The position numbers and the translations under genes were made by a program. DNA of 31,583 nt from a virus (taxonomy: Duplodnaviria; Heunggongvirae; Uroviricota; Caudoviricetes), in IMG/VR virus record IMGVR_UViG_2802429219_000016; one strand, given 5' to 3'. Shown one piece after another: positions 6,552 through 31,583 of this stretch; the stretch's first letter is position 1; each line of letters starts with the position of its first letter. The notes beneath the pieces were generated by a model. The model saw only the letters and a list, made by a program, of their open reading frames with translations. It had not been told where the DNA came from and did no database searches.

Positions 6552-6864
6552 TGCTGATTTAATGGCTGCAACCTTAATTTCCAGTGGCATGTCAGAACAA
6601 AAGGTAAATGATTTCCTGGATAATGTCGTATACCAGCACTATGAGCAGGCCAGAGAAAATTTAATTTCAGAAAAGCGCACGATGATTGCTGAATCATTAA
6701 GCCCTGCATGGATTATCGAAGAGTTGCGGGGAATCATTGCCAGTCAGGATAAAGTGGCGGCAGTTGCCGCCCTCGATGTGCTACAGCGAATGAGTAAAGA
6801 GTTATTCAACACTGAATTAATTTTTAAATCCGGGGGACATAATGAGCCGCACATCCCTGATTAA
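6529..6864 (+). CDS. Hypothetical early protein (111 aa)
   Basis: ORF with GAGG RBS; no recognised domain. Confidence 0.45.
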   Translation: MKIQMITDADLMAATLISSGMSEQKVNDFLDNVVYQHYEQARENLISEKRTMIAESLSPAWIIEELRGIIASQDKVAAVAALDVLQRMSKELFNTELIFKSGGHNEPHIPD

Positions 6865-7393
6865 ATTAATTCATGTTGCCCGTCGGGAGTTGCAACTCGA
6901 CGATGACACTTACCGAGCTTTTCTGGTGCAGTGCACGGGCAAAACCAGTTGCCGCGAGCTGTCCGTTGCACAACTGGAACAGGTGCTCGATGCCATGAAA
7001 GAGCGCGGTTTTAAAAAGCAGAAAAAACATCCCCGCCGTCGCTTTAAGGGGCATGTCACACCACGCGAGAAGATTTACAAAATCTGGCAGCAGATGTTTC
7101 TTGACGGTTTCGTCTCCGATATCAGCGACGCTGCGCTGGACAAATACGTTGAGCGCCTGACAGCCAGACGTAATGGCGGACAGGGTGTTTCCACGCTGGC
7201 ATGGTGTCACGGGGAATCGTTGCAGATTGTGCTCGAAACGCTCAAACAGTGGCATATGCGCTGCATCCGGGAAGCCTTTGCCCGACATGGCGTGCCTTTA
7301 CCTGTGAGCGAAACCGGGCGGGAGCTGCGCGGCTATGATGCACTGACCAGTGCATATGCCCGCGCACGAAACAGCGGGAGAATTGCTGTATGA
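6842..7393 (+). CDS. gemA: GemA-like (Mu gp16 family) protein (183 aa)
   Basis: Position immediately upstream of and overlapping mor; size and basic composition consistent with Mu GemA/gp16 family (recollection). Confidence 0.65.
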   Translation: MSRTSLIKLIHVARRELQLDDDTYRAFLVQCTGKTSCRELSVAQLEQVLDAMKERGFKKQKKHPRRRFKGHVTPREKIYKIWQQMFLDGFVSDISDAALDKYVERLTARRNGGQGVSTLAWCHGESLQIVLETLKQWHMRCIREAFARHGVPLPVSETGRELRGYDALTSAYARARNSGRIAV

Positions 7394-7839
7394 AACAGAT
7401 GAAAGAGCAGGATTTGTTCGAAGACCTTCGGGACGACAGCGTTCTGGAATATCTTCATGATTACCAGGAAAACACCGCTTATCCGGCGTTACTTTCTGAA
7501 CTGAACGCACTGCTGCGTAAAGAGCTGGCCCGGATTGGAGCAGACCCTGCCCATTCCCTTGAGCTGGTTGTGGCGATTTGTCGCCATATCGGCGGGATGC
7601 AGGTTTATGTTCCGAGGGGGAATATTCTGGAGAATCTTGTCCGGGATATGCGTATCTGGCGTGATTTTAACGGCCATAATATTCCTGAACTGGTTCAGCG
7701 TTACGGGGTGACGTATAAAACCGTCTACAAGGCCATCAAACGGATGCGACGTCTGGAGCGTAATAAATACCAGCCGGATTTGTTTTACCCCTCCCCGAAC
7801 CTGCCTCACCCCGTTCGTCGCCCACCACGACGCCCTTAA
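7390..7839 (+). CDS. mor: Mor/C-family transcription activator (149 aa)
   Basis: DLFEDLRDDSVLEYL...ALLSELN.LLR.ELARIGADPAHSLELVVAICRHIGGMQVYVPRG...RDMRIW.DFNG.N..EL..RYGVTYKTVYKAIKRMRRL closely parallels Mu Mor including the C-terminal HTH. Confidence 0.8.
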   Translation: MKQMKEQDLFEDLRDDSVLEYLHDYQENTAYPALLSELNALLRKELARIGADPAHSLELVVAICRHIGGMQVYVPRGNILENLVRDMRIWRDFNGHNIPELVQRYGVTYKTVYKAIKRMRRLERNKYQPDLFYPSPNLPHPVRRPPRRP

Positions 7840-7844
7840 TCAAT

Positions 7845-7869
7845 GAAGCCGGTAAATCCGGCTTTTTTT
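7845..7869 (+). terminator. Intrinsic terminator-like hairpin plus T7 run downstream of mor
   Basis: GAAGCCGG-TAAAT-CCGGCTTTTTTT: 6-8 bp GC stem, 5-nt loop, seven T. Part of a 40-bp element repeated at 15561-15600. Confidence 0.5.
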
Positions 7870-7924
7870 ATGCCTCCGGCACCATGAAGCAGACCACGTT
7901 TAAATCTGCTTCACAGGTGCTTTT

Positions 7925-8521
7925 ATGGAAAATCAAAAATTCTCCCCGGCCTTTGAACATGCGCTGAATTTTATTCTGCGTCCTGATATCGAAGGCGGCT
8001 ATGTCAATGACCCCACTGACAGCGGCGGCGAAACAAAATACGGCATTTCTGACCGCCGCGACGGTGTGATTGACGGCAAAACCGATGTCAACGGCGACGG
8101 CAAACCGGATACCCGCATTAAGGATTTGACCCGCGAACAGGTTGCGCAGATTTACTGGCGCGATTACTGGCTGCTTGCCGGGTGTGATCAGTGGCCTGAT
8201 GGTGTGGCGCTCTTTGTGTTTGATGCGGCTGTTCAGCATGGCGTGGAGCAAGCCGTCAAGTTTTTACAGGAAGCCGCTGATGTGTCTGCCGATGGCATCA
8301 TCGGCCCGCGTACCCGCAAGGCTGTGAGCCTGTCCACCCCGGACTGGCTGCTGTCCCGCTGCATTGTTCGCCGTTGCCGCTTTTATGCGGGCCTCATCAA
8401 ATCAAAACCCGCTCGTGGCAAATACCTGAACGGCTGGTTTAACCGCATGGAAGAACTGACCGACGCCTGTCTGGAAATTATCGATACCCCTCTGGGCATC
8501 ATGTCCGCCACGCGGGGGTGA
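7925..8521 (+). CDS. Endolysin, GH108-type lysozyme with C-terminal peptidoglycan-binding region (198 aa)
   Basis: EGGYVNDPTDSGGETKYGIS catalytic motif typical of GH108; C-terminal ADGIIGPRTRKAV fits PG-binding domain; no N-terminal TM segment, so apparently not a SAR endolysin. Confidence 0.75.
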   Translation: MENQKFSPAFEHALNFILRPDIEGGYVNDPTDSGGETKYGISDRRDGVIDGKTDVNGDGKPDTRIKDLTREQVAQIYWRDYWLLAGCDQWPDGVALFVFDAAVQHGVEQAVKFLQEAADVSADGIIGPRTRKAVSLSTPDWLLSRCIVRRCRFYAGLIKSKPARGKYLNGWFNRMEELTDACLEIIDTPLGIMSATRG

Positions 8522-8522
8522 T

Positions 8523-8750
8523 ATGGGCAAAGGCTGGGATGCCTCACTGAAAGCCGGGCGGCGTGACCGCCTGCGCCAGGAGGTTCTGCACCGCATGGCC
8601 GGAGGTCCGCCCCCGAAACCGCTGGACTATACCGGCCATGATGGCACACACGCCAGCTACTACATGCGTGGCTGGAACTCCGTGGATACACGGGACATTT
8701 TCTGGCAGTGCCAGAAGTACAAGGAAAAACTCAATGCACAGAATGAATAG
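8523..8750 (+). CDS. Hypothetical protein in lysis module (75 aa)
   Basis: ATG 2 nt after endolysin stop; no recognised domain. Confidence 0.4.
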   Translation: MGKGWDASLKAGRRDRLRQEVLHRMAGGPPPKPLDYTGHDGTHASYYMRGWNSVDTRDIFWQCQKYKEKLNAQNE

Positions 8751-9144
8751 TCTTTTTGTTCGCGTTATTTACTCCCGCTTTATGTTGTGCCAGTGGTCGT
8801 TTCTGGGACTGTCGGCAGTACTTTTTCTGGCGAGCTGTTTTGCCGGATGGCGGGCGTTTGCGGTCATGGTGCTGGCATACGGCGCGACACTCTGCCTGAT
8901 TCACAGTTTCCAGCTGGGCAACGTACCTTATCGCCTGCAGCCCAAAAGGCGTTTCCGGGCCGCCTCCCTTCGAATTGTCGTGTGGTCATGGGTGGTCTGG
9001 GCCGTTGGTTTTTTCATGCTGACATTCGGCATTCTTTATCTGAAGGAGCCTTATCAGCTGGCGTTCTGGCTGGGCGGTATTTTTTGCGCGGCACTTTATA
9101 AACATCAGCGCCGTTTTCATAAGGGGGATTCATGGATCCGTTAA
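8734..9144 (+). CDS. Polytopic membrane protein, holin candidate (136 aa)
   Basis: About four hydrophobic segments; ATG 8734 with AAGGAAAAA RBS preferred over the in-frame upstream start at 8563. Confidence 0.45.
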   Translation: MHRMNSLFVRVIYSRFMLCQWSFLGLSAVLFLASCFAGWRAFAVMVLAYGATLCLIHSFQLGNVPYRLQPKRRFRAASLRIVVWSWVVWAVGFFMLTFGILYLKEPYQLAFWLGGIFCAALYKHQRRFHKGDSWIR

Positions 9145-9740
9145 CCCTTTCAGGCATCGCCTCTGTTCTGCTGAAAGCCGGGCCGGGGCTGATTCGTTCC
9201 GTCGGGCGCTGGTTTGGTGGCAGTACATCTGCCGCCGCTGACTCGGTGGCCGGTATGGTGGAAAGCGTCCGGGAAAGCCTGCCGGTGGCTGAACAGCAAC
9301 GCATTCTGGAACAAAAACTGGTGATGCTGTCACCGGAGCAACTGATGCAGCTGGAAACCCTGAAAGTTCAGCTGCAACAGCTGGAGGTGGAACGGCAGAA
9401 GCTGGTGCTGGCTGACCAGCAGGCCGCACACCACGAACAGCAGGAAACCATCCGCAATGGTGACAACGCCACGGACAGCTATGTGCGCCAGACACGCCCG
9501 CTGCTGGCCCGCCTTTCCTGTTACAGCAGTCTGGCCTATGTGCTGTTGCTCTCCTGCGGCCAGATTGCCGGAGCCATTGCCGGTGCCAGAGGTATTACGC
9601 TGCATATGCCATCACCGGACTGGGATATCACGCTGATGTTGCTTACCCCGGCGCTGGGCTATCTCGGTGTGCGAACCCTTGACGGCTTTGCCCGTTACAG
9701 CAAATCAAGCCGTCACAAAATGTCTGCGGGGCTGAAATGA
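9132..9740 (+). CDS. Membrane protein with N-terminal coiled coil and C-terminal TM segments (202 aa); lysis-associated
   Basis: Gln/Leu-rich heptad-like region (EQQRILEQKLVMLSPEQLMQLETLKVQLQQLEVERQKL) followed by hydrophobic stretches. Confidence 0.45.
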   Translation: MDPLTLSGIASVLLKAGPGLIRSVGRWFGGSTSAAADSVAGMVESVRESLPVAEQQRILEQKLVMLSPEQLMQLETLKVQLQQLEVERQKLVLADQQAAHHEQQETIRNGDNATDSYVRQTRPLLARLSCYSSLAYVLLLSCGQIAGAIAGARGITLHMPSPDWDITLMLLTPALGYLGVRTLDGFARYSKSSRHKMSAGLK

Positions 9741-9964
9741 CCGACGAAATCGATCGCATCAGTGAAGTGGTTTTGAACGAGCGTCAGAGCGTCGTTAAAG
9801 CCTGGCAGACACGGACAAAAGAAACGCCCCACAGCCGGGGCTTCTGCAATGACTGCGGGAACGTTATTCCGGCACAGCGCCTTGCGGCGCTGCCGGATGT
9901 GGTGACCTGTATTGACTGTCAGCAGATGCGGGAACGCAGGAGGAAAACGTGTCCTGGGAAATGA
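9737..9964 (+). CDS. TraR/DksA-family C4 zinc-finger protein (75 aa)
   Basis: C-x2-C-x17-C-x2-C (CNDCGNVIPAQRLAALPDVVTCIDCQ) and size typical of TraR / lambda Orf73 family. Confidence 0.7.
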   Translation: MTDEIDRISEVVLNERQSVVKAWQTRTKETPHSRGFCNDCGNVIPAQRLAALPDVVTCIDCQQMRERRRKTCPGK

Positions 9965-10254
9965 TCAGAGCCAACTGGCCCATTCTGTGGGCATTGCTGA
10001 TGACAGGAATAAACCTGCTTCAGTTGATTCTGGCAAAGACCTACGTCAAACGCGAAGAGTTTGATTTGCTGCGTTCCCGCGTGTCGGTGATGGAAAGCCA
10101 GGTACATCAGCTACCTGATCGTGATGAGTTCCACCGCCTGCAGCTGGATATCAGCAACCTGCGGGGAGAAATCAAAGAGCTGGGGCCATCCATCCGCCAG
10201 GTATCCCGCATCAGCGATTTGTTATTAGAGAACGAGTTAAAGGAAAAAAATTAA
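9949..10254 (+). CDS. Small N-terminally anchored membrane protein with coiled coil (101 aa); i-spanin-like architecture
   Basis: N-terminal TM (WPILWALLMTGINLLQLIL) then helical region; GTG start 5-6 nt after AGGAGG. Spanin role is inference from architecture only. Confidence 0.4.
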   Translation: MSWEMIRANWPILWALLMTGINLLQLILAKTYVKREEFDLLRSRVSVMESQVHQLPDRDEFHRLQLDISNLRGEIKELGPSIRQVSRISDLLLENELKEKN

Positions 10255-10547
10255 TGGCGATGAAAGAGATCCTCACTGAAGACCGTCGTCTGGTGTTGCT
10301 GCGTTCCCTGCTGGATTGTGGCGACAGTGCGAATGAATCCGTGTTGCAGACCTGCCTTCAGGCCTACGGTCATAAGGTATCCCGTGATGTGGTGCGCACC
10401 CAGCTTGCATGGCTGCGCGAGCAGGGGCTGGTTCGTCTGTCTGATGTGGGCGGCTGTTACGTGGCTGAAATCACCGGCAGCGGCGAGGATGTGGCAAACG
10501 GCCTGTCCAGCGTTCCGGGCGTTAAAAAACCCCGTGCGAGGGACTGA
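10254..10547 (+). CDS. Hypothetical protein (97 aa)
   Basis: Tightly coupled ORF between lysis and packaging genes; no recognised domain. Confidence 0.45.
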   Translation: MAMKEILTEDRRLVLLRSLLDCGDSANESVLQTCLQAYGHKVSRDVVRTQLAWLREQGLVRLSDVGGCYVAEITGSGEDVANGLSSVPGVKKPRARD

Positions 10548-10549
10548 GC

Positions 10550-10849
10550 ATGGCCCGAAAACTGAAGCCGTTAAGTCGCGGAGAACGGGCCGTCGTGCGG
10601 CAACTGGCGTACTGCCTTGTGCTGGCAGATATTGAGCAAAACGCCATTGTCCGTGCATACGAACAACAGACCGGAAAGCCCTGGAACCCGGATGCACCGG
10701 ATACCCCCATGAAACGTGCCCTGCGTTCATCACCGGCATGTGCGCGGCTGTGGAAGCTGCTGGGTAAGGATATCCGCTCCGTTCGCGAAGAAATATACGC
10801 CGGTCTGAAAACACCGGGAACTGAAGACGGGGGCCGTCGTGAACCGTAA
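10550..10849 (+). CDS. Hypothetical protein (99 aa)
   Basis: Tightly coupled ORF upstream of packaging genes; no recognised domain. Confidence 0.45.
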   Translation: MARKLKPLSRGERAVVRQLAYCLVLADIEQNAIVRAYEQQTGKPWNPDAPDTPMKRALRSSPACARLWKLLGKDIRSVREEIYAGLKTPGTEDGGRREP

Positions 10850-10986
10850 AAAGAATCCGATAAGTAAAGCGTCCCGTGATGAACTCCGCCGTCTGGCGCA
10901 CAACCTGACATGGCGGGAAATCCAGAGCGGCGCACTGAAATCTGCATACGAAAGTTTACAGCGTAGTGAGCAACAGGAGGGCACAC

Positions 10987-11568
10987 ATGGAAAATGAACA
11001 ACGCCCCACCCGTGGCCGTCTTTCCAAAGTGGATTTACTCCCGGACAGCATCCGGGAGCAGTTGCATCAGATGCTGCGGGAAAAGCGGCACACGCAGGAA
11101 GAAATCCGCGAAGCCATCAACGCCCTGATTGACGAACACAACCTGCCGGAAGAGATGCAGTTAAGCCGGACGGGCTTAAACCGCTATGCCATCCGCATGG
11201 AAAAAGTCGGGGCAAAAATCCGTGCCTCCCGCGAAATGGCCGAAGTCTGGGCGGCAAAGCTGGGTTCCGCGCCGACGTCAGACGTCGGCAAGCTGCTGAT
11301 GGAGTTTGTAAAAACGCTGGCTTTTGAAACGTCCATGTCGATGGCAGAAGACGACAAGCCCGTTGCACCGAAGGCGCTGGGGCAACTGGCGCTGGTTGCC
11401 CAGCGTCTGGAAGCGGCAGCCATGACCAGCCATAAACGCGAGAAAGCGATCCGCGATGCGTTTGCGCAGGAGATGGCAGAGAAAACCGAAGAACTGGTCA
11501 GAACGGGCGGTCTGTCAGGTGGTGCGGCTGACACCATCAAACGTGAAATTCTGGGGATTAGCGCATGA
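10987..11568 (+). CDS. Putative terminase small subunit (Mu gp27-like, DUF3486-type) (193 aa)
   Basis: Directly upstream of and overlapping the large terminase; AGGAGG RBS 6 nt before ATG 10987; family assignment from recollection. Confidence 0.5.
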   Translation: MENEQRPTRGRLSKVDLLPDSIREQLHQMLREKRHTQEEIREAINALIDEHNLPEEMQLSRTGLNRYAIRMEKVGAKIRASREMAEVWAAKLGSAPTSDVGKLLMEFVKTLAFETSMSMAEDDKPVAPKALGQLALVAQRLEAAAMTSHKREKAIRDAFAQEMAEKTEELVRTGGLSGGAADTIKREILGISA

Positions 11569-13100
11569 CACAAATGGACACGTTCAGTGAATATGATGTT
11601 CTGCTGCCGTATCAGAAACGCTGGGTGGCGGATGATGCCGACCTGAAAATCGCCGAGAAATCCCGCCGTACCGGTTTAACCTGGGCGGAGGCGGCAGATG
11701 CAGCACTGACAGCATCGCTGAAGAAGGAAGACGGCGGGCGCGATCACTTTTATATCGGTTCGAATAAGGAGATGGCCCGCGAATTTATCGACGCTGTGGC
11801 GATGTGGGCGAAAGCGTTTAATGCGGCAGCGGAAGAAATCTGCGAGGAAGTGATCACCGACGAAGACAAGGACATTCTGACGTTCGTCGTGTACTTCGCC
11901 AGCGGTTTTAAGGTCAAGGCACTGTCCAGCAACCCGAGCAACATTCGCGGGATGCAGGGGAATGTCACCATCGACGAGGCCGCGTTCCATGAAAAACTGG
12001 ACGAGCTGCTGAAGGCGGTGCTGCCGCTGAAAACATGGGGCGGCAAAATTCGCCTTATTTCCACCCATGACGGCGTGGACAACCTGTTTAACCAGCTGAT
12101 TCAGGAAAGCCGCGCGGGCAAAAAAGATTACAGCATTCACACCATCACGCTGGACGACGCCTGCAATGACGGGCTGTACCGACGTATCTGTCAGGTGCGC
12201 GGCATGGTGTGGTCACCGGAAGCCGAGGCGGAATGGAAAGAAGGCCTGCTGCGAAATACCGCCACCCGCGAAGACGCGCTGGAGGAGTATTACTGCGTCC
12301 CGAAAAACGGCGGCGGCACGTATATCCGCCGCTCACTGCGTGAACGTGCGGCCCGTGGCACCGGGAAAGTGTTGCGCTTTACCGGCACACCGGAATTTAA
12401 CGCACTGACGGAAAGCCAGCGTCGGGCAGATATCCGGGAATGGCTGGAAACAGTGGTGCGCCCTGAACTGGAAAAACTCCCGAAGAACCTGCGCCACTGT
12501 CTGGGGGAAGACTTTGCGCGTTCGGGTGACCTGACCGTACTGGCCCCGGTGACGGTGAACGATGACACCACCCGCGAGGTGCCGTTCCTGGTTGAGCTTG
12601 GCAATGTGCCGTTTAAACAGCAGGAGCAGGTGCTGTTCTGGCTTTGCGATCGTCTGCCCCGCCGTGACGGCATCAAAATGGATGCGCGGGGGAATGGTCA
12701 GTATCTGGCAGAACAGGCGGCAGAGCGGTACGGCGATGAAGTGGAACAGGTGATGCTGTCCGTGGCGTTTTACCGCGAAAACATGCCCCGTTTCCGTGCG
12801 GCGTTTGAAGATGATGAGCTGATCCTTCCGAAGCATGAAGACGTGATCAATGACCTCGGGGCCATTCAGTTACTGCGTGGCGTTCCCGGCATTGATGATT
12901 CACGAACCAGAGGCAGCGACGGTCACAAACGTCACGGCGACGCCGCTGTGGCCATTTTCCTGGGCTTCCTTGCCAGTAAAGATGACTGCCACCGTTACGA
13001 ACTGCATCGCCTGAACCGCCCGGCGAAACCGGAAGAACGCAACGCGCGCCGCCAGCTGAAGCTGACACGCGGCCTGAAAAATGAGGGAGGTTTACTGTGA
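11565..13100 (+). CDS. Terminase large subunit (511 aa)
   Basis: Size, position before portal, and Mu gp28-like sequence character. Confidence 0.8.
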   Translation: MTQMDTFSEYDVLLPYQKRWVADDADLKIAEKSRRTGLTWAEAADAALTASLKKEDGGRDHFYIGSNKEMAREFIDAVAMWAKAFNAAAEEICEEVITDEDKDILTFVVYFASGFKVKALSSNPSNIRGMQGNVTIDEAAFHEKLDELLKAVLPLKTWGGKIRLISTHDGVDNLFNQLIQESRAGKKDYSIHTITLDDACNDGLYRRICQVRGMVWSPEAEAEWKEGLLRNTATREDALEEYYCVPKNGGGTYIRRSLRERAARGTGKVLRFTGTPEFNALTESQRRADIREWLETVVRPELEKLPKNLRHCLGEDFARSGDLTVLAPVTVNDDTTREVPFLVELGNVPFKQQEQVLFWLCDRLPRRDGIKMDARGNGQYLAEQAAERYGDEVEQVMLSVAFYRENMPRFRAAFEDDELILPKHEDVINDLGAIQLLRGVPGIDDSRTRGSDGHKRHGDAAVAIFLGFLASKDDCHRYELHRLNRPAKPEERNARRQLKLTRGLKNEGGLL

Positions 13101-14668
13101 ACCTGAAACAACTGGCCGGGGCCGTTCGCCATCTGCTGAACCCGGCAACCGGTGAGGAAGACACGCTGAAAAAAGAGGCGCTCAACGAAGCACAGGCCCG
13201 TCCGCGTCATGCCGGTGTGCGTTCGGCCTCGCCGGGTATCAGCGTCGCCTCCGGGCTGACCCCCGGCAGGCTGGCAGGCATTCTGCGCAATGCTACTGAC
13301 GGCATCACGCGTGATTTTTTTATCCTTGCTGAAGAGATGGAAGAACGCGATTTGCATTACGCCTCGGTACTGCGCACCCGCAAGCTGACGGTGGCGGGTA
13401 TCGAACCGGTGGTGGTGGCCGCCAGTGATGACGATGCTGACGTGCAACTGGCGGACGCCATCCGTGCACTGATGGAGGCACCGCAAATCCCTGAGCTGAT
13501 GTTTGATCTGCTCGACGGGCTGGGAAAAGGCGTGGCGGTCTGTGAAATTTTGTGGAACACCCGCAACAACCACTGGGTGCCCCGTGATTATGAGTGGGTT
13601 GATCCCCGTTTTCTGAAAGCCGAAAAGCCCACGCTGCGCCAGTTCCGCCTGCTGACAGACGATGAACCGGTGGATGGTGTACCGCTGACACCGGGAAAAT
13701 TCATTGTTCACCAGCCGCGCCTGAAATCCGGTTTGCCGCTGCGTAACGGTCTGGCCCGTCTGGTGGCGGTAATGTACATGCTGAAATCCTTTACCGTGCG
13801 CGACTGGTGGGCATTTGCGGAAAAATTCGGCATTCCGGTCACGGTGGGGAAATACGGTCCCAACGCCACGGAGGAACAAATCCGCGTGCTGATTGATGCG
13901 ATTGCGTCCATTGCCTCGGATGCCGGGTGTGCCATTCCGCAGTCCATGCAACTGGAGATGAAGGAAACCGCCAGCCGGAATAACGGCGGCGCACTGTTCC
14001 GTGAAATGGCGGAATGGTGTGATGCGCAAATCAGTAAAGCCGTGCTGGGGCAGACCATGACCACGGATAACGGCAGTTCGCGCTCACAGGCGGACGTGCA
14101 CAATCAGGTGCGTATGGACATTGTGCGCTGGGACGCGCGGCAGCTGGCTAACACGCTGAATGAATATCTGGTGCGCCCCTACATCGAGGCCAATTACGGG
14201 CCACAGGAACACTATCCCCGTGTTGTTCTGCGTATCAGTGAAGCAGAAGATCTGAAGGCGCTGACAGATGCTCTGGTGCCGCTGATTGACCGGGGGATGC
14301 GGGTTCAGGAATCGGAGCTGCGGGACCGGTTCGGCCTGGCTGAACCGGACGACGGGGCTGATGTTCTGCATCCGGTGTCTGCCGGAATGTCAGGTGATGT
14401 GGCGATGAACCGCGAGCGCGTCGCCCTGAACCGGGAACACCCCGATGAACTGGCACAGATGGTGGATGATGCCCTGCGTGACTGGCAGAAAACCGGCGAG
14501 GCGTTCACGAACCCGGTGCTGACACTGGCGCAGGAATGCGACAGTTTTGATGACTTTCTGAAACGCCTGCCTGAGCTTCAGGAAACGCTGAACGCGGACG
14601 ACTTTGCCCTGCAACTGGCGGAGGTGTGCTTTAAGGCGCGTGCGCTGGGGGACACCGGTCATGCGTGA
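13097..14668 (+). CDS. H: Portal protein, Mu gp29 (H) family (523 aa)
   Basis: GTG start after GGGAGG RBS, overlaps terminase stop; size and order typical of Mu-like portal. Confidence 0.8.
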   Translation: MNLKQLAGAVRHLLNPATGEEDTLKKEALNEAQARPRHAGVRSASPGISVASGLTPGRLAGILRNATDGITRDFFILAEEMEERDLHYASVLRTRKLTVAGIEPVVVAASDDDADVQLADAIRALMEAPQIPELMFDLLDGLGKGVAVCEILWNTRNNHWVPRDYEWVDPRFLKAEKPTLRQFRLLTDDEPVDGVPLTPGKFIVHQPRLKSGLPLRNGLARLVAVMYMLKSFTVRDWWAFAEKFGIPVTVGKYGPNATEEQIRVLIDAIASIASDAGCAIPQSMQLEMKETASRNNGGALFREMAEWCDAQISKAVLGQTMTTDNGSSRSQADVHNQVRMDIVRWDARQLANTLNEYLVRPYIEANYGPQEHYPRVVLRISEAEDLKALTDALVPLIDRGMRVQESELRDRFGLAEPDDGADVLHPVSAGMSGDVAMNRERVALNREHPDELAQMVDDALRDWQKTGEAFTNPVLTLAQECDSFDDFLKRLPELQETLNADDFALQLAEVCFKARALGDTGHA

Positions 14669-30403: not shown

Positions 30404-31583
30404 AGGTGTGATTAAAACGCCCACGGGAGAACCGCTGGGCGGCGCAACCATTACACTGACCTCCCTGCACAACCGTGCAGGGATTCTGAAAAGTGTTTTC
30501 AGCCATGTCACCACACAGAACGGGGAATATGACTTCCCCGTTCTGCCGGGTGTGTACAGCGTTCGCCTGACGCAAAGCACACAGCGCCTTTCAGAAATCG
30601 GTGTCATCCGCGTTTATGAAGATTCAGCGGACGGTTCGCTGAATGATTTTCTGGGTGCAACCGATATTGACCTGCGCCCGGAAGCCCTGAAGAAATTCGA
30701 GGAACTGGCGCAACAGGCGCAGCAAAGCGCAGAAAAAGCAGGAGAACACGCCACCGCTGCTGAACAGGCCCGTCAGGATACAGAAACGCTCGCTGGGGAA
30801 ATACAGCAGGATGCAGAAGAAATTGCGGGTAATGTACAGAAAGCTGAAGAACTGGCCTCTGAAACAAACCAGAATGCCGCCCGCGCAGAGCAGGCCGTCA
30901 AGGATGCCGACCTGATAGTCCAGAAGGCGGTCGATAAACTTGGTGAAGCTGCAACGCTGACCGGCGAGGCAAAAGCCAGCGCCGAAGCGGCAGCAAAAAG
31001 CGAGCAGAGCGCGAAACAGCACAGGGACGAGGCGCAACGGATAGTTGATGACCTGAAGGGAAGCAATGCTTCCACGACGCAAAAAGGTCTGGTGCAACTC
31101 TGTAGTGATACAGACAACGACAGCGAAGAACTGGCAGCCACACCAAAAGCCGTCAAAGCCGTCATGGACGAAACGAAAACAAAAGCGCCGCTGGACAGCC
31201 CGGCATTCACCGGCACGCCCACCACACCAACCCCACCGGACGATGCTGCCGGTCTGGAAACAGCGAACGCGGCATTTGTCCGCAAACTGCTCGCTGCACT
31301 GGTTGACTCGTCACCGGAAGCCCTGGACACGCTGAACGAGCTGGCAGCGGCGCTGGGCAATGACCCGGAGTTTGCGACAACAATCATGAACGCGCTGGCG
31401 GGTAAACAACCACTCAGTGACGTGTTAACCGCAATCAGTAATCTGGAAGAACGGGCAGATAACCTTCTGTGCTTTAATCAGGACGGGAATGCTTCACTGT
31501 CTCCGCTGTCAGAAAAAGCCCGGTCACTGCTGGCACAGGCCACAGTGGAAGCCATGCGTAATGAGCTTGAGCTGAAAAGCGCA
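30390..31583 (+). CDS. Side tail fiber protein, lambda Stf-like (5' part only, at least 398 aa; runs off the window)
   Basis: Not in the ORF track because no stop occurs before the window end. Hand translation from ATG 30390 is open to 31583. N-terminus resembles the prophage tail fibre N-terminal domain (VYEDS.DG.LNDFL); also KGLVQLCSDTDNDSEELAATPKAVKAVMDETKTKAPLDSPAFTGTPT and DSSPEALDTLNELAAALGNDPEFATTIMNALAGKQP as in lambda Stf / P2 H fibers. Confidence 0.8.
   Translation, partial: MPQLKGVIKTPTGEPLGGATITLTSLHNRAGILKSVFSHVTTQNGEYDFPVLPGVYSVRLTQSTQRLSEIGVIRVYEDSADGSLNDFLGATDIDLRPEALKKFEELAQQAQQSAEKAGEHATAAEQARQDTETLAGEIQQDAEEIAGNVQKAEELASETNQNAARAEQAVKDADLIVQKAVDKLGEAATLTGEAKASAEAAAKSEQSAKQHRDEAQRIVDDLKGSNASTTQKGLVQLCSDTDNDSEELAATPKAVKAVMDETKTKAPLDSPAFTGTPTTPTPPDDAAGLETANAAFVRKLLAALVDSSPEALDTLNELAAALGNDPEFATTIMNALAGKQPLSDVLTAISNLEERADNLLCFNQDGNASLSPLSEKARSLLAQATVEAMRNELELKSA

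Follow-up and report, generated by a model that had tools for sequence, protein, structure and literature searches.

The 75-codon gene described here encodes a genuine TraR-type zinc-finger protein, which most likely binds host RNA polymerase (RNAP). It lies on the plus strand of the window, the whole stretch of 31,583 nucleotides that was analysed. By its position the gene appears to be an inherited, fixed component of the late operon in a lineage of Mu-like phages, because at all 116 testable loci, and in distant hosts as well, a small ORF with the same cysteine spacing fills this slot. We consider it likely that the product is a TraR-type factor that does not bind DNA, encoded in the late operon of this lineage. 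The original prediction had taken the gene for accessory cargo, and the result is mainly a correction of that view: a bona fide TraR-type factor in the inherited late-operon backbone. The protein is an ordinary addition to a known family. In a 97%-identical twin prophage found in E. coli, which is the host, the PGAP pipeline of NCBI has already annotated it as 'TraR/DksA C4-type zinc finger protein'. The sole notable feature is its conserved place in the late operon, with a holin-like gene on one side and the gene for a DUF2730 protein on the other (Table 1).

Table 1. Features of the zinc-finger gene and of the operon that surrounds it, in window coordinates.
Feature	Coordinates	Strand	Evidence
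Mor/C-family transcription activator	7390..7839	+	Pfam Mor E=4e-30; phrog_532 late transcriptional activator
Intrinsic terminator-like hairpin and T-run	7845..7872	+	8-bp stem, 5 GC pairs, TTTTTTT
GH108 + PG_binding_3 endolysin, first operon gene	7925..8521	+	PF05838 E=6e-24; PF09374 E=1e-15; phrog_315 endolysin
202-aa membrane protein, holin-like	9132..9740	+	phrog_1544 E=1e-59; Pfam GTA_holin_3TM 20.4 bits (cutoff 24.8, not reached)
TraR-like C4 zinc-finger gene, positional equivalent of Mu gene 24	9737..9964	+	75 aa; Pfam, PHROG, PDB, AF2, Foldseek, PGAP
DEIDRI, codons 3-8, counterpart of TraR DxxDxA tip motif	9743..9760	+	aligned without gaps to TraR and lambda Orf73
Predicted zinc ribbon C37xxC40-x17-C58xxC61, including R48 (9878-9880)	9845..9919	+	sequence
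Predicted helix at the C-terminus (residues 59-71), corresponding to the TraR C helix	9911..9949	+	AF2 secondary structure
DUF2730 gene with GTG start, homologous to Mu gp25 'releasin'	9949..10254	+	Pfam PF10805 E=2e-30; Mu annotation
gp26-like winged-helix gene, two small ORFs, gp27-type small terminase gene	10254..11568	+	phrog_436, phrog_8988, Phage_Mu_Gp27 E=2e-54, PGAP

The zinc-finger ORF runs from an ATG to a TGA and overlaps both of its neighbours. Its start codon (9737-9739) lies in an ATGA that is shared with the TGA stop codon (9738-9740) of the upstream 202-aa ORF, which makes the proposed translational coupling to the upstream gene likely. At its 3' end it overlaps the DUF2730 gene by 16 nt from the GTG start of the latter, and the AGGAGG Shine-Dalgarno sequence of DUF2730 (9938-9943) is within the zinc-finger gene. 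Both overlaps are kept among relatives. The gene is present in 46 of 5,426 complete E. coli genomes. Its dN/dS is about 0.25 in each of two clades, it is therefore a real gene under purifying selection. The same value, together with an ORF that is intact in all relatives, rejects a relic or pseudogene.

The 75-aa protein is matched by the Pfam family zf-dskA_traR (PF01258) over residues 33-67, with 42.3 bits (gathering score 24.9) and E=7e-11. PHROG 54, 'DksA-like zinc-finger protein', matches residues 1-73 with E=2e-20 and is the only PHROG match. Both matches are far beyond what would be expected by chance. The best relatives in the PDB are TraR (5w1s_M, E=2e-6) and DksA (1tjl, E=5e-6), and an HMM of the family aligns to TraR without gaps, residues 1-71 on 1-71, with 41.8 bits. 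The AF2 model, which is confident (pLDDT 81.9), consists of a helix (residues 2-24), a zinc domain and a second helix (residues 59-71). A Foldseek search with this model gives RNAP-bound TraR (6n57_M and 5w1s_M) as the top matches, with TM scores of 0.59-0.69 over 66-71 columns. TraR comprises an N element (residues 2-27), a G element (28-57) and a C element (58-73) (PMC6970531). The model has this same three-element layout, and its length falls within the TraR class of about 70-80 aa. The family assignment of the original prediction, a C4 finger of the TraR/DksA type, is borne out by these matches and by the four cysteines.

TraR of the F plasmid (5W1S, 6N57) has 73 aa and can be aligned gaplessly with the window protein at about 30% identity. 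C37, C40, C58 and C61 are at identical positions in the two proteins, and these cysteines are invariant in comparisons of 44 and of 118 members. D3, D6, G41, I44, P45, R48, P53, Q62 and E66 are also common to both. The acidic N-terminal residues, which the original prediction had regarded as needed for RNAP interaction, are present: D3 and D6 are in register with D3 and D6 of TraR and lambda Orf73, and A8 is replaced by Ile. In TraR and Orf73, D3 and D6 are needed for function (PMC9239242). Conservation of D6 in the clade is 90% or higher, and 70 of 118 clade members have the full DxxDxA motif; I8 is limited to the E. coli/Shigella clade. R48, which in TraR touches the beta' rim helices (PMC9239242), is invariant in all 118 database clusters and in two alignments. 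Apart from the cysteines, no positions of the clade are more conserved than D6 and R48. In the C-terminal helix the conservation of Q62 and E66 reaches at least 90%. The corresponding helix of TraR, residues 58-73 (PMC6970531), contacts the beta lobe/Si1.

The two proteins differ at the interface with beta'Si3. E46, R49 and K50 of TraR are A46, L49 and A50 in the window protein, and position 49 is hydrophobic (L, I, V or M) in 115 of 118 clusters. The TraR interface has an approximately 2-fold effect on activation and a mild effect on inhibition (PMC6970531), so the activation arm may be weaker here. Loss of these residues would lower the expected TraR-like activation; it does not bear on family membership.

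Phage homologs of TraR that have been tested are lambda Orf73, P2 Orf82, VP882 Orf61/TraR, VHML Orf8 and Xenorhabdus bovienii Gp34. All five bind RNAP and inhibit rrnB P1, including Orf82, which has no A8, and Gp34, which has no D3; Orf82 also complements a strain without dksA, although its activity is lower (PMC9239242). Direct RNAP binding, inhibition of rRNA and r-protein promoters and independence from ppGpp are established for TraR and these five homologs. These proteins resemble the window protein in being small, with a C4 finger, an acidic tip and R48. The window protein is 27-30% identical to Orf61 and Orf73, and at position 49 it carries the Leu of DksA instead of Arg. Action of the TraR type requires a host RNAP with the betaSi1 and beta'Si3 insertions, as in Proteobacteria (PMC9239242). 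This fits the present case, where the host is E. coli and all clade members come from Proteobacteria. Gp34 was also considered as a member of the clade, using the sequence from the supplement, and was rejected since it is of the TraR/P2 type (RR pair, GVTLC).

DksA (1TJL) has the same zinc-ribbon domain and an acidic tip. Q/R-R-L at positions 47-49 of the window protein resembles R124-R125-L126 of DksA. DksA has 151 aa, carries its tip on a two-helix coiled coil and needs ppGpp, whereas the window protein resembles TraR in having just one helix at the N-terminus. In the PDB alignment L52 and Q62 stand opposite R129 and K139 of DksA, which reportedly belong to the ppGpp site (Ross et al. 2016). 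DksA proper can be rejected as the identity of the protein, which at 75 aa is much shorter than the approximately 150 aa of DksA, has the single N-terminal helix and aligns to DksA residues 92-149 only.

The genomic context was surveyed from the DUF2730 gene as an anchor. A small ORF with a CxxC-x17-CxxC motif is directly upstream of this gene at every one of the 116 testable loci. A tblastn search with the window DUF2730 protein against cultured phages gave 16 records, and further relatives were inspected directly among the phages of Table S1 of PMC9239132. The order zinc finger-DUF2730 is also found in Vibrio (V. vulnificus and a Vibrio phage), Shewanella, Aeromonas, Methylophaga, Marinomonas, Alteromonadaceae B23 and Ochrobactrum POA1180. 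In the relatives the zinc finger immediately precedes a block of DUF2730, winged-helix (wHTH), TerS and TerL genes. The slot is retained although the endolysin type varies (GH108, Phage_lysozyme, SLT or DUF5675). The phylogroups of the zinc finger follow the phage clades, with E. coli, Klebsiella-like and Vibrio-like types that each have their own N-terminus. On this gene order the zinc finger is near-universal in the lineage, and nothing suggests a structural role. The original prediction had named universality in Mu-like phages together with a structural role as grounds for refutation, and only the first half of this applies.

Syntenic zinc fingers were inspected in Shewanella MuM16-2 (p23), Vibrio phage 1.028.O (gp23), V. 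vulnificus ZX4290 and Klebsiella Kp4866-3. They occupy the same slot upstream of DUF2730 and wHTH/TerS/TerL, belong to the same family with the same size and Pfam domain, and are 31-52% identical to the window protein. The window N-terminus is DEIDRI, and most of the other Mu-like proteins have D/K-x-F-D-R/K-A. Two more Mu-like kin are known here from published annotation tables alone. FluMu HI1497 is a TraR/DksA zinc finger just ahead of the packaging genes, and KS10 gp7 is one between endolysin and terminase (PMC2628397). The zinc finger of KS10 follows a 102-aa gene of unknown family. POA1180 gp56 has kept the zinc ribbon and the slot, and its acidic tip is absent.

This distribution makes it scarcely credible that the gene is a moron recently put into the lysis module. 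TraR-like genes are common mobile small genes of many phages and plasmids, Pfam finds no TraR/DksA protein in Mu, and the transposable phages D3112, BcepMu, JBD25 and RC1 are without the gene; these facts would suit cargo. They are set against an identical position in every relative examined, in many gammaproteobacterial genera and one alphaproteobacterial phage, and against protein phylogroups that track the phage clades. The gene is served by no separate promoter or terminator, it overlaps both neighbours, and in the slot-mate of Mu the cysteines are spaced identically. D3112 orf23 and BcepMu gp25/gp26 were examined in case they were unrecognised zinc-finger or DUF2730 genes, but a C4 motif and a Pfam match to DUF2730 are both lacking. 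JBD25-type and RC1 phages have DUF2730 without the zinc finger.

The slot-mate in Mu is gp24 (Mu_24, 64 aa, PHROG 3260), which shares the CxxC-x17-CxxC spacing and the overlap with the DUF2730 start. The original statement that Mu has no such gene therefore holds in that a Pfam search of the Mu proteins gives no TraR/DksA match, gp24 itself failing PF01258; it does not hold in that gp24 fills the slot. G41, L49, P53 and the equivalents of R7-A8 are shared by gp24. The tip of gp24 is ExxNxA and not DxxDxA, with D6 absent, V is found at the position of R48 and the C-terminal helix is essentially missing. Membership of the window protein in the gp24 family was rejected, since the window protein matches only phrog_54 and gp24 only phrog_3260. 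The gp24 family is very narrow. Against the family HMM gp24 scores 13.4 bits in the zinc ribbon only; shuffled sequences with fixed cysteines score 2.2 +/- 3.4, and 26 of 2000 reach 13.4. With hhalign the match to the family is 60%, rising to 69% after two divergent members are added (E about 5e-5, zinc ribbon only). Mu gp24 is thus probably a degenerate TraR-like homolog, with the homology suggestive and unproven. An uncharacterised Mu protein thereby acquires a plausible origin, in a TraR-like zinc ribbon that has degenerated and lost the function-critical residues.

The operon around the zinc finger resembles that of Mu. The Mor/C-family gene is the sole Mor-family gene of the annotated twin prophage and is likely to be the activator of the operon. 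The hairpin behind it would close the early/middle transcript, with the late operon beginning beyond, as judged from the gene layout; the order Mor/C gene, terminator, operon is that of the Mu C gene, terminator and Plys. No sigma-70-like promoter was found between 6800 and 13200. Several weak terminator-like hairpins are present on the plus strand inside the upstream membrane-protein genes. The 202-aa protein is 40% identical to a Vibrio-phage protein in the matching position, and its Methylophaga counterpart matches GTA_holin_3TM with 52 bits. Tightly overlapping genes run from the zinc-finger region to the terminase, so that the operon enters the packaging genes. An Rfam scan of 7000-12000 gave no match and no tRNA genes were found in the whole window.

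The description of the gene as lying between lysis genes was broadly right, with the endolysin and the holin-like protein upstream and the releasin homolog downstream. A lysis role of DUF2730 in a phage with a non-SAR endolysin is only putative; the question of its role outside SAR-endolysin phages was raised by the Mu lysis paper (PMC9239132). The tight link of the zinc finger with DUF2730 offers a testable lead on that question.

Gene order points to a late timing for the zinc finger, because a terminator follows the Mor/C-like gene, no sigma-70 promoter is found, the genes overlap, and in Mu the slot lies within the C-dependent Plys (late lys) transcript. TraR itself is encoded in a conjugation operon, and the tested phage homologs sit in early, regulatory or replication regions. 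The TraR homologs studied so far are early or regulatory genes, whereas in this lineage the gene is part of a late lysis/packaging operon; such a placement would mean a different timing of host RNAP reprogramming.

We therefore propose the following, by analogy with TraR. The N-terminal helix would enter the secondary channel of RNAP and bring D3 and D6 close to the active site, R48 would anchor the zinc domain to the beta' rim helices, and the C-terminal helix would rest on the beta lobe/Si1. The protein may then destabilise short-lived open complexes without ppGpp and so switch off rRNA and ribosomal-protein promoters. Binding and inhibition would be expected to be good and activation weaker than with TraR, because A46, L49 and A50 replace the residues that contact Si3 and A8 is Ile. 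Transcription of a Mor/C-dependent late operon, with translational coupling, would produce the protein together with the lysis and packaging proteins. The likely benefit would be that RNAP and precursors are withdrawn from the making of ribosomes and become available for late phage genes. The rationale for shutting off rRNA late is less obvious than for doing so early. The analysis shows the gene, its family, fold and key residues, its synteny and the purifying selection on it, and from these RNAP binding, promoter effects, timing and benefit are inferred.

Some observations speak against this explanation. A8 is Ile in the E. coli/Shigella clade, and the activity of Orf82, which is also without A8, is reduced. 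Conservation does not extend to E46, R49 and K50. The weak hairpins inside the upstream membrane-protein genes count against it as well. The slot-mates Mu gp24 and POA1180 gp56 are without the acidic tip, and a function linked to the slot could dispense with contact to the active site.

These tipless slot-mates, which keep the ribbon and the slot, are also among the evidence for a different role, in which the zinc finger mainly partners the flanking membrane proteins, in lysis timing or in membrane sequestration and release, and a role at RNAP is secondary or absent. We regard this as unlikely. It is favoured by the adjacency to DUF2730 at all 116 loci and in distant hosts, one of them alphaproteobacterial, by the conserved overlaps with both neighbours and by a slot that is kept while the endolysin type changes. 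There is also a precedent in VP882, where TraR acts in complex with QisA, the product of the adjacent overlapping gene (bioRxiv 10.64898/2026.07.27.740977). VP882 TraR overlaps an upstream gene of about 200 aa by 4 nt, and the window gene likewise overlaps its upstream 202-aa gene. QisA is, however, unrelated to the holin-like protein and to DUF2730 (E=0.07 and 0.42), and nothing points to a physical interaction. In JBD25-type and RC1 phages DUF2730 works with no zinc finger, and published work on Mu, which omits gp24, found gp25 by itself to be enough as releasin (PMC9239132). The adjacency may just reflect vertical inheritance of a compact operon, and the conservation of D6 and R48, which are RNAP contacts, argues for RNAP as the target.

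A further proposal is a conserved functional unit of three genes in transposable phages, made up of the zinc finger, the holin-like protein and DUF2730. The zinc finger would engage a membrane partner and so link the reprogramming or release of RNAP to lysis timing, as in VP882 QisA-TraR; gp24 and POA1180 gp56 would be tipless derivatives that keep partner or RNAP-rim binding, for example as competitors of DksA/Gre. This proposal, which leans on the VP882 analogy, is distinctly unlikely.

The position of the gene directly upstream of the DUF2730, wHTH, TerS and TerL block in all relatives could also suggest a generic zinc-ribbon protein for DNA packaging or late-gene DNA binding, working with the gp26-like wHTH protein and the small terminase and resembling TraR at the level of the fold only. 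The authors of the KS10 study speculated about control of head-gene transcription (PMC2628397). Such a role is highly improbable here, because the likeness to TraR covers the full length, including the N-terminal tip residues and R48. The protein has no basic DNA-binding surface motif besides the C-terminal RRRK. TraR/DksA proteins do not bind DNA (PMC9239242). The reading as a TraR-type factor of the late operon is preferred over these alternatives.

Two of the proteins compared here, B23 AVI04939 and POA1180 gp56, have been deposited as hypothetical, and could be re-annotated.

The zinc-finger gene encodes a 75-aa protein (MTDEIDRISEVVLNERQSVVKAWQTRTKETPHSRGFCNDCGNVIPAQRLAALPDVVTCIDCQQMRERRRKTCPGK) with the cysteine motif C37xxC40-x17-C58xxC61. 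ORF calling places the gene at the position given in the original prediction, the ATG sharing bases with the TGA of the upstream 202-aa ORF (ATGA). The 3' end overlaps the GTG start (9949) of the DUF2730 gene by 16 nt, and the AGGAGG ribosome-binding site of that gene lies within the zinc-finger gene. The assignment to the TraR/DksA type was also correct: the protein matches the Pfam family zf-dskA_traR with 42.3 bits (E=7e-11), the gathering score being 24.9, and its residues 1-73 match PHROG 54, 'DksA-like zinc-finger protein' (E=2e-20). The gene is already named 'TraR/DksA C4-type zinc finger protein' by NCBI PGAP, with which the protein databases agree; the family, its fold and its mechanism are likewise known. 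The gene is under purifying selection, with a dN/dS of ~0.25 in the E. coli clade and likewise in the Klebsiella-like sister clade, compared with 0.04 for the adjoining DUF2730 gene.

Among solved structures, F-plasmid TraR (5w1s_M, E=2e-6) and DksA (1tjl, E=5e-6) are nearest by sequence. An HMM of 69 syntenic relatives aligns with TraR without gaps, residues 1-71 to 1-71, at 41.8 bits. AlphaFold2, given an alignment of 44 sequences, yields a confident model (mean pLDDT 81.9) in which residues 2-24 and 59-71 form helices on either side of a zinc domain that includes a short helix, 46-51; TraR has the elements N (2-27), G (28-57) and C (58-73) (PMC6970531). A Foldseek search of the PDB placed RNAP-bound TraR (6n57_M, 5w1s_M) at the top, with TM 0.59-0.69 over 66-71 columns, followed by DksA.

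Three features mark a working TraR homolog: a DxxDxA tip, a C-terminal helix, and a C4 domain carrying R48 for the rim helices and R49 for Si3 (PMC9239242). For comparison we used a copy of an annotated traR gene and, as lambda orf73 is without RefSeq annotation, the 73-aa ORF between ea22 and orf61. The window protein, TraR and Orf73 have in common D3, D6, the four cysteines, G41 and R48. D3 and D6 are required residues, and D3N or D6N cripples lambda Orf73 (PMC9239242). Position 8 is Ile, not A8; P2 Orf82, also without A8, matches TraR in RNAP binding and can complement a dksA null, with lower activity in vitro (PMC9239242). R48 is invariant in the clade (118 of 118 database clusters). The Si3-interface residues E46, R49 and K50 of TraR, whose contribution is about 2-fold for activation and small for inhibition (PMC6970531), are A, L and A in the window protein, and 115 of the 118 clusters have a hydrophobic residue at position 49, as in the R-R-L of DksA. 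The window protein is predicted to bind RNAP and to inhibit promoters of the rRNA type, its activation arm being weaker.

The window is a nearly whole Mu-like (transposable) prophage, from repressor, transposase and MuB-like ATPase genes through to tail-fibre genes. A 97%-identical prophage is inserted beside aaeA in E. coli PSS-15, and prophages of this family are present in 46 of the 5,426 complete genomes of E. coli. The layout around the zinc-finger gene is that of the C gene, terminator and Plys late operon of Mu. In the region 6800-13200 no sigma-70-like promoters were found, compared with 3.2 expected from shuffles, and the genes abut or overlap. Taken together, this gene order makes it most likely that the zinc-finger gene is expressed late, from an activator-dependent promoter, alongside the lysis and packaging genes.

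Features of the late region and right end (window coordinates)
Feature	Position	Strand	Remarks
GemA gene			ahead of the activator
Mor/C-family activator	7390..7839		single
Intrinsic terminator	7845-7872		good
Inverted repeat	7885..7913		TGAAGCAGA-N11-TCTGCTTCA
Endolysin	7925..8521		GH108 + PG_binding_3
75-aa ORF	8523..8750		between endolysin and membrane-protein ORF
Membrane-protein ORF	about 8734..9144		phrog_12596; PGAP equivalent 136 aa
202-aa membrane protein	9132..9740		phrog_1544; GTA_holin_3TM 20.4 bits, under threshold
Zinc-finger ORF	9737..9964	+	75 aa
AGGAGG site of DUF2730 gene	9938-9943		
DUF2730, Mu gp25 homolog	9949..10254		directly after zinc-finger gene
gp26-like winged-helix gene			between DUF2730 and the small ORFs
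Small ORF	10550..10849		99 aa, phrog_8988
Small ORF	10839..10997		52 aa
gp27 small terminase (TerS)	10966..11568		large terminase (TerL) follows
Two overlapping ORFs	30624..31387	-	157 and 204 aa

Unlike Mu, which has separate Mor and C, the prophage contains only one Mor-family activator. A perfect 9-bp inverted repeat with a TTTAAA palindrome in its centre sits between the terminator and the endolysin ATG, the expected site of an activator-dependent late promoter or leader. Possible roles are an operator and an RNA hairpin immediately ahead of the Shine-Dalgarno sequence.

The original prediction took the zinc-finger gene to be accessory cargo. A synteny survey of IMG/VR loci was anchored on the DUF2730 gene and not on the zinc finger, using three queries: an alignment of the window, Mu, Vibrio and Klebsiella proteins, Mu gp25, and Vibrio gp25. 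In all 116 testable loci a 64-79-aa ORF with the CxxC-x17-CxxC motif ends within ~60 nt of the DUF2730 start, and cargo is now a very improbable reading. The order ~200-aa membrane protein, zinc finger, DUF2730, wHTH, TerS, TerL is found in Shewanella MuM16-2 and V. vulnificus ZX4290, and independent Pfam tags give the same order in Methylophaga, Aeromonas and Marinomonas prophages and a metagenome contig. That the protein is a generic zinc ribbon serving packaging seems equally remote. Two harder cases were chosen from Table S1 of PMC9239132. Directly upstream of DUF2730, Alteromonadaceae phage B23 encodes AVI04939 (locus L128 4012..4236; PF01258, 31.4 bits) and the alphaproteobacterial Ochrobactrum phage POA1180 encodes gp56 (locus L130 2621..2851; 47.3 bits), which is without the DxxDxA motif; both are annotated 'hypothetical'. 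Published tables place such a gene (HI1497) just before the gp26-like, gp27 and gp28 genes in FluMu, and between endolysin and terminase in Burkholderia phage KS10 (gp7; PMC2628397). The zinc-finger/DUF2730 pair is constant while the endolysin type changes (GH108, Phage_lysozyme, SLT, DUF5675). The gene is not universal among Mu-like phages: it is absent beside DUF2730 in Pseudomonas JBD25 and Rhodobacter RC1, and in the corresponding region of D3112 and BcepMu both the zinc finger and a DUF2730 recognisable to Pfam are missing. We found no description of the conserved late-operon slot or the DUF2730 linkage in the available literature.

A better candidate for accessory cargo is the phrog_12596 insert. 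A single PHROG, phrog_2121 (284 aa), covers two of the window ORFs: the 75-aa ORF downstream of the endolysin corresponds to its N-terminal part (3-75) and the 202-aa ORF to its C-terminal part (91-273). The phrog_12596 gene separates the two in another frame. It is also found in Klebsiella phage Kp4866-3 and is absent from Vibrio, Shewanella and Marinomonas relatives.

In Mu, gene 24 (64 aa, 'hypothetical', MNEDQNRAVALLLAELWQGDTRDIPRPAAYDPPVLCAGCGRELRPDVLRQQPMANYCHWCRGAE) occupies exactly the zinc-finger slot in the late lys transcript. Like the window protein, gp24 has the CxxC-x17-CxxC spacing, equivalents of G41, L49 and P53, and an N-terminal R-A; it differs in having ExxNxA for DxxDxA, Val for R48 and a C-terminal helix that is all but absent. 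It does not match PF01258 and belongs to its own PHROG, 3260, a very narrow family of five clusters with a 63%-identical member in the same slot. The earlier view that Mu lacks a TraR gene thus holds for a recognisable one, but not for the slot and its cysteine spacing. Against the family HMM gp24 scores 13.4 bits (cysteine-fixed shuffles 2.2 +/- 3.4, the score being reached by 26 of 2000), and hhalign gives 60%, rising to 69% with divergent members added (E ~5e-5), for the zinc ribbon only. These statistics are suggestive, and we lean towards gp24 being a true homolog. Mu itself looks like a derived, degenerate case in a lineage where the zinc-finger gene is the rule. The Mu lysis paper (PMC9239132) makes no mention of gp24, and we found no account of this probable ancestry in the available literature. 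An E. coli gp24-like protein, P0131 (78% identical), has lost the fourth cysteine (CHWS for CHWC), and P0134 is a frameshifted form of 46 aa; these are possible signs of decay of the Mu-type gene in some prophages.

We consider it likely that the window protein is a TraR-type regulator, which would bind the RNAP secondary channel independently of ppGpp and DNA. Its production would be late and coupled in translation to that of its neighbours; by shutting down rRNA and r-protein promoters it would free resources for late phage expression. This benefit would parallel the effect of lambda Orf73 on burst size (PMC9239242); the phage TraR homologs tested are located in early or regulatory regions (PMC9239242). 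The main rival, a conserved role tied to the membrane-protein neighbours, is unlikely. It would suit the very tight linkage and the tip-less variants that keep the slot (Mu gp24, POA1180 gp56), yet two lineages have DUF2730 without the zinc finger, and the best-conserved non-cysteine positions are D6 and R48, the RNAP-contact residues. A precedent exists in VP882, whose TraR works in complex with QisA, the product of an adjacent overlapping gene (bioRxiv 10.64898/2026.07.27.740977). The upstream 199-aa QisA gene overlaps the TraR gene by 4 nt (gp60-gp61, locus L136 5867..6684), the geometry seen in the window, but QisA is unrelated to either neighbour of the window zinc finger and has no detectable similarity to the 202-aa protein.

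The window endolysin is without a hydrophobic SAR-like N-terminus, and the window DUF2730 therefore cannot act as a SAR-endolysin 'releasin' as shown for Mu gp25; the role of DUF2730 outside SAR-endolysin phages is a question raised by PMC9239132. A variable mini-region may exist at 10550..10997, a spot that is empty of genes in Mu and occupied by different small ORFs in the Aeromonas and metagenome relatives. The reverse-strand ORFs at the right end lie just past the + strand tail-fibre genes, an arrangement reminiscent of Mu's invertible tail-fibre segment.
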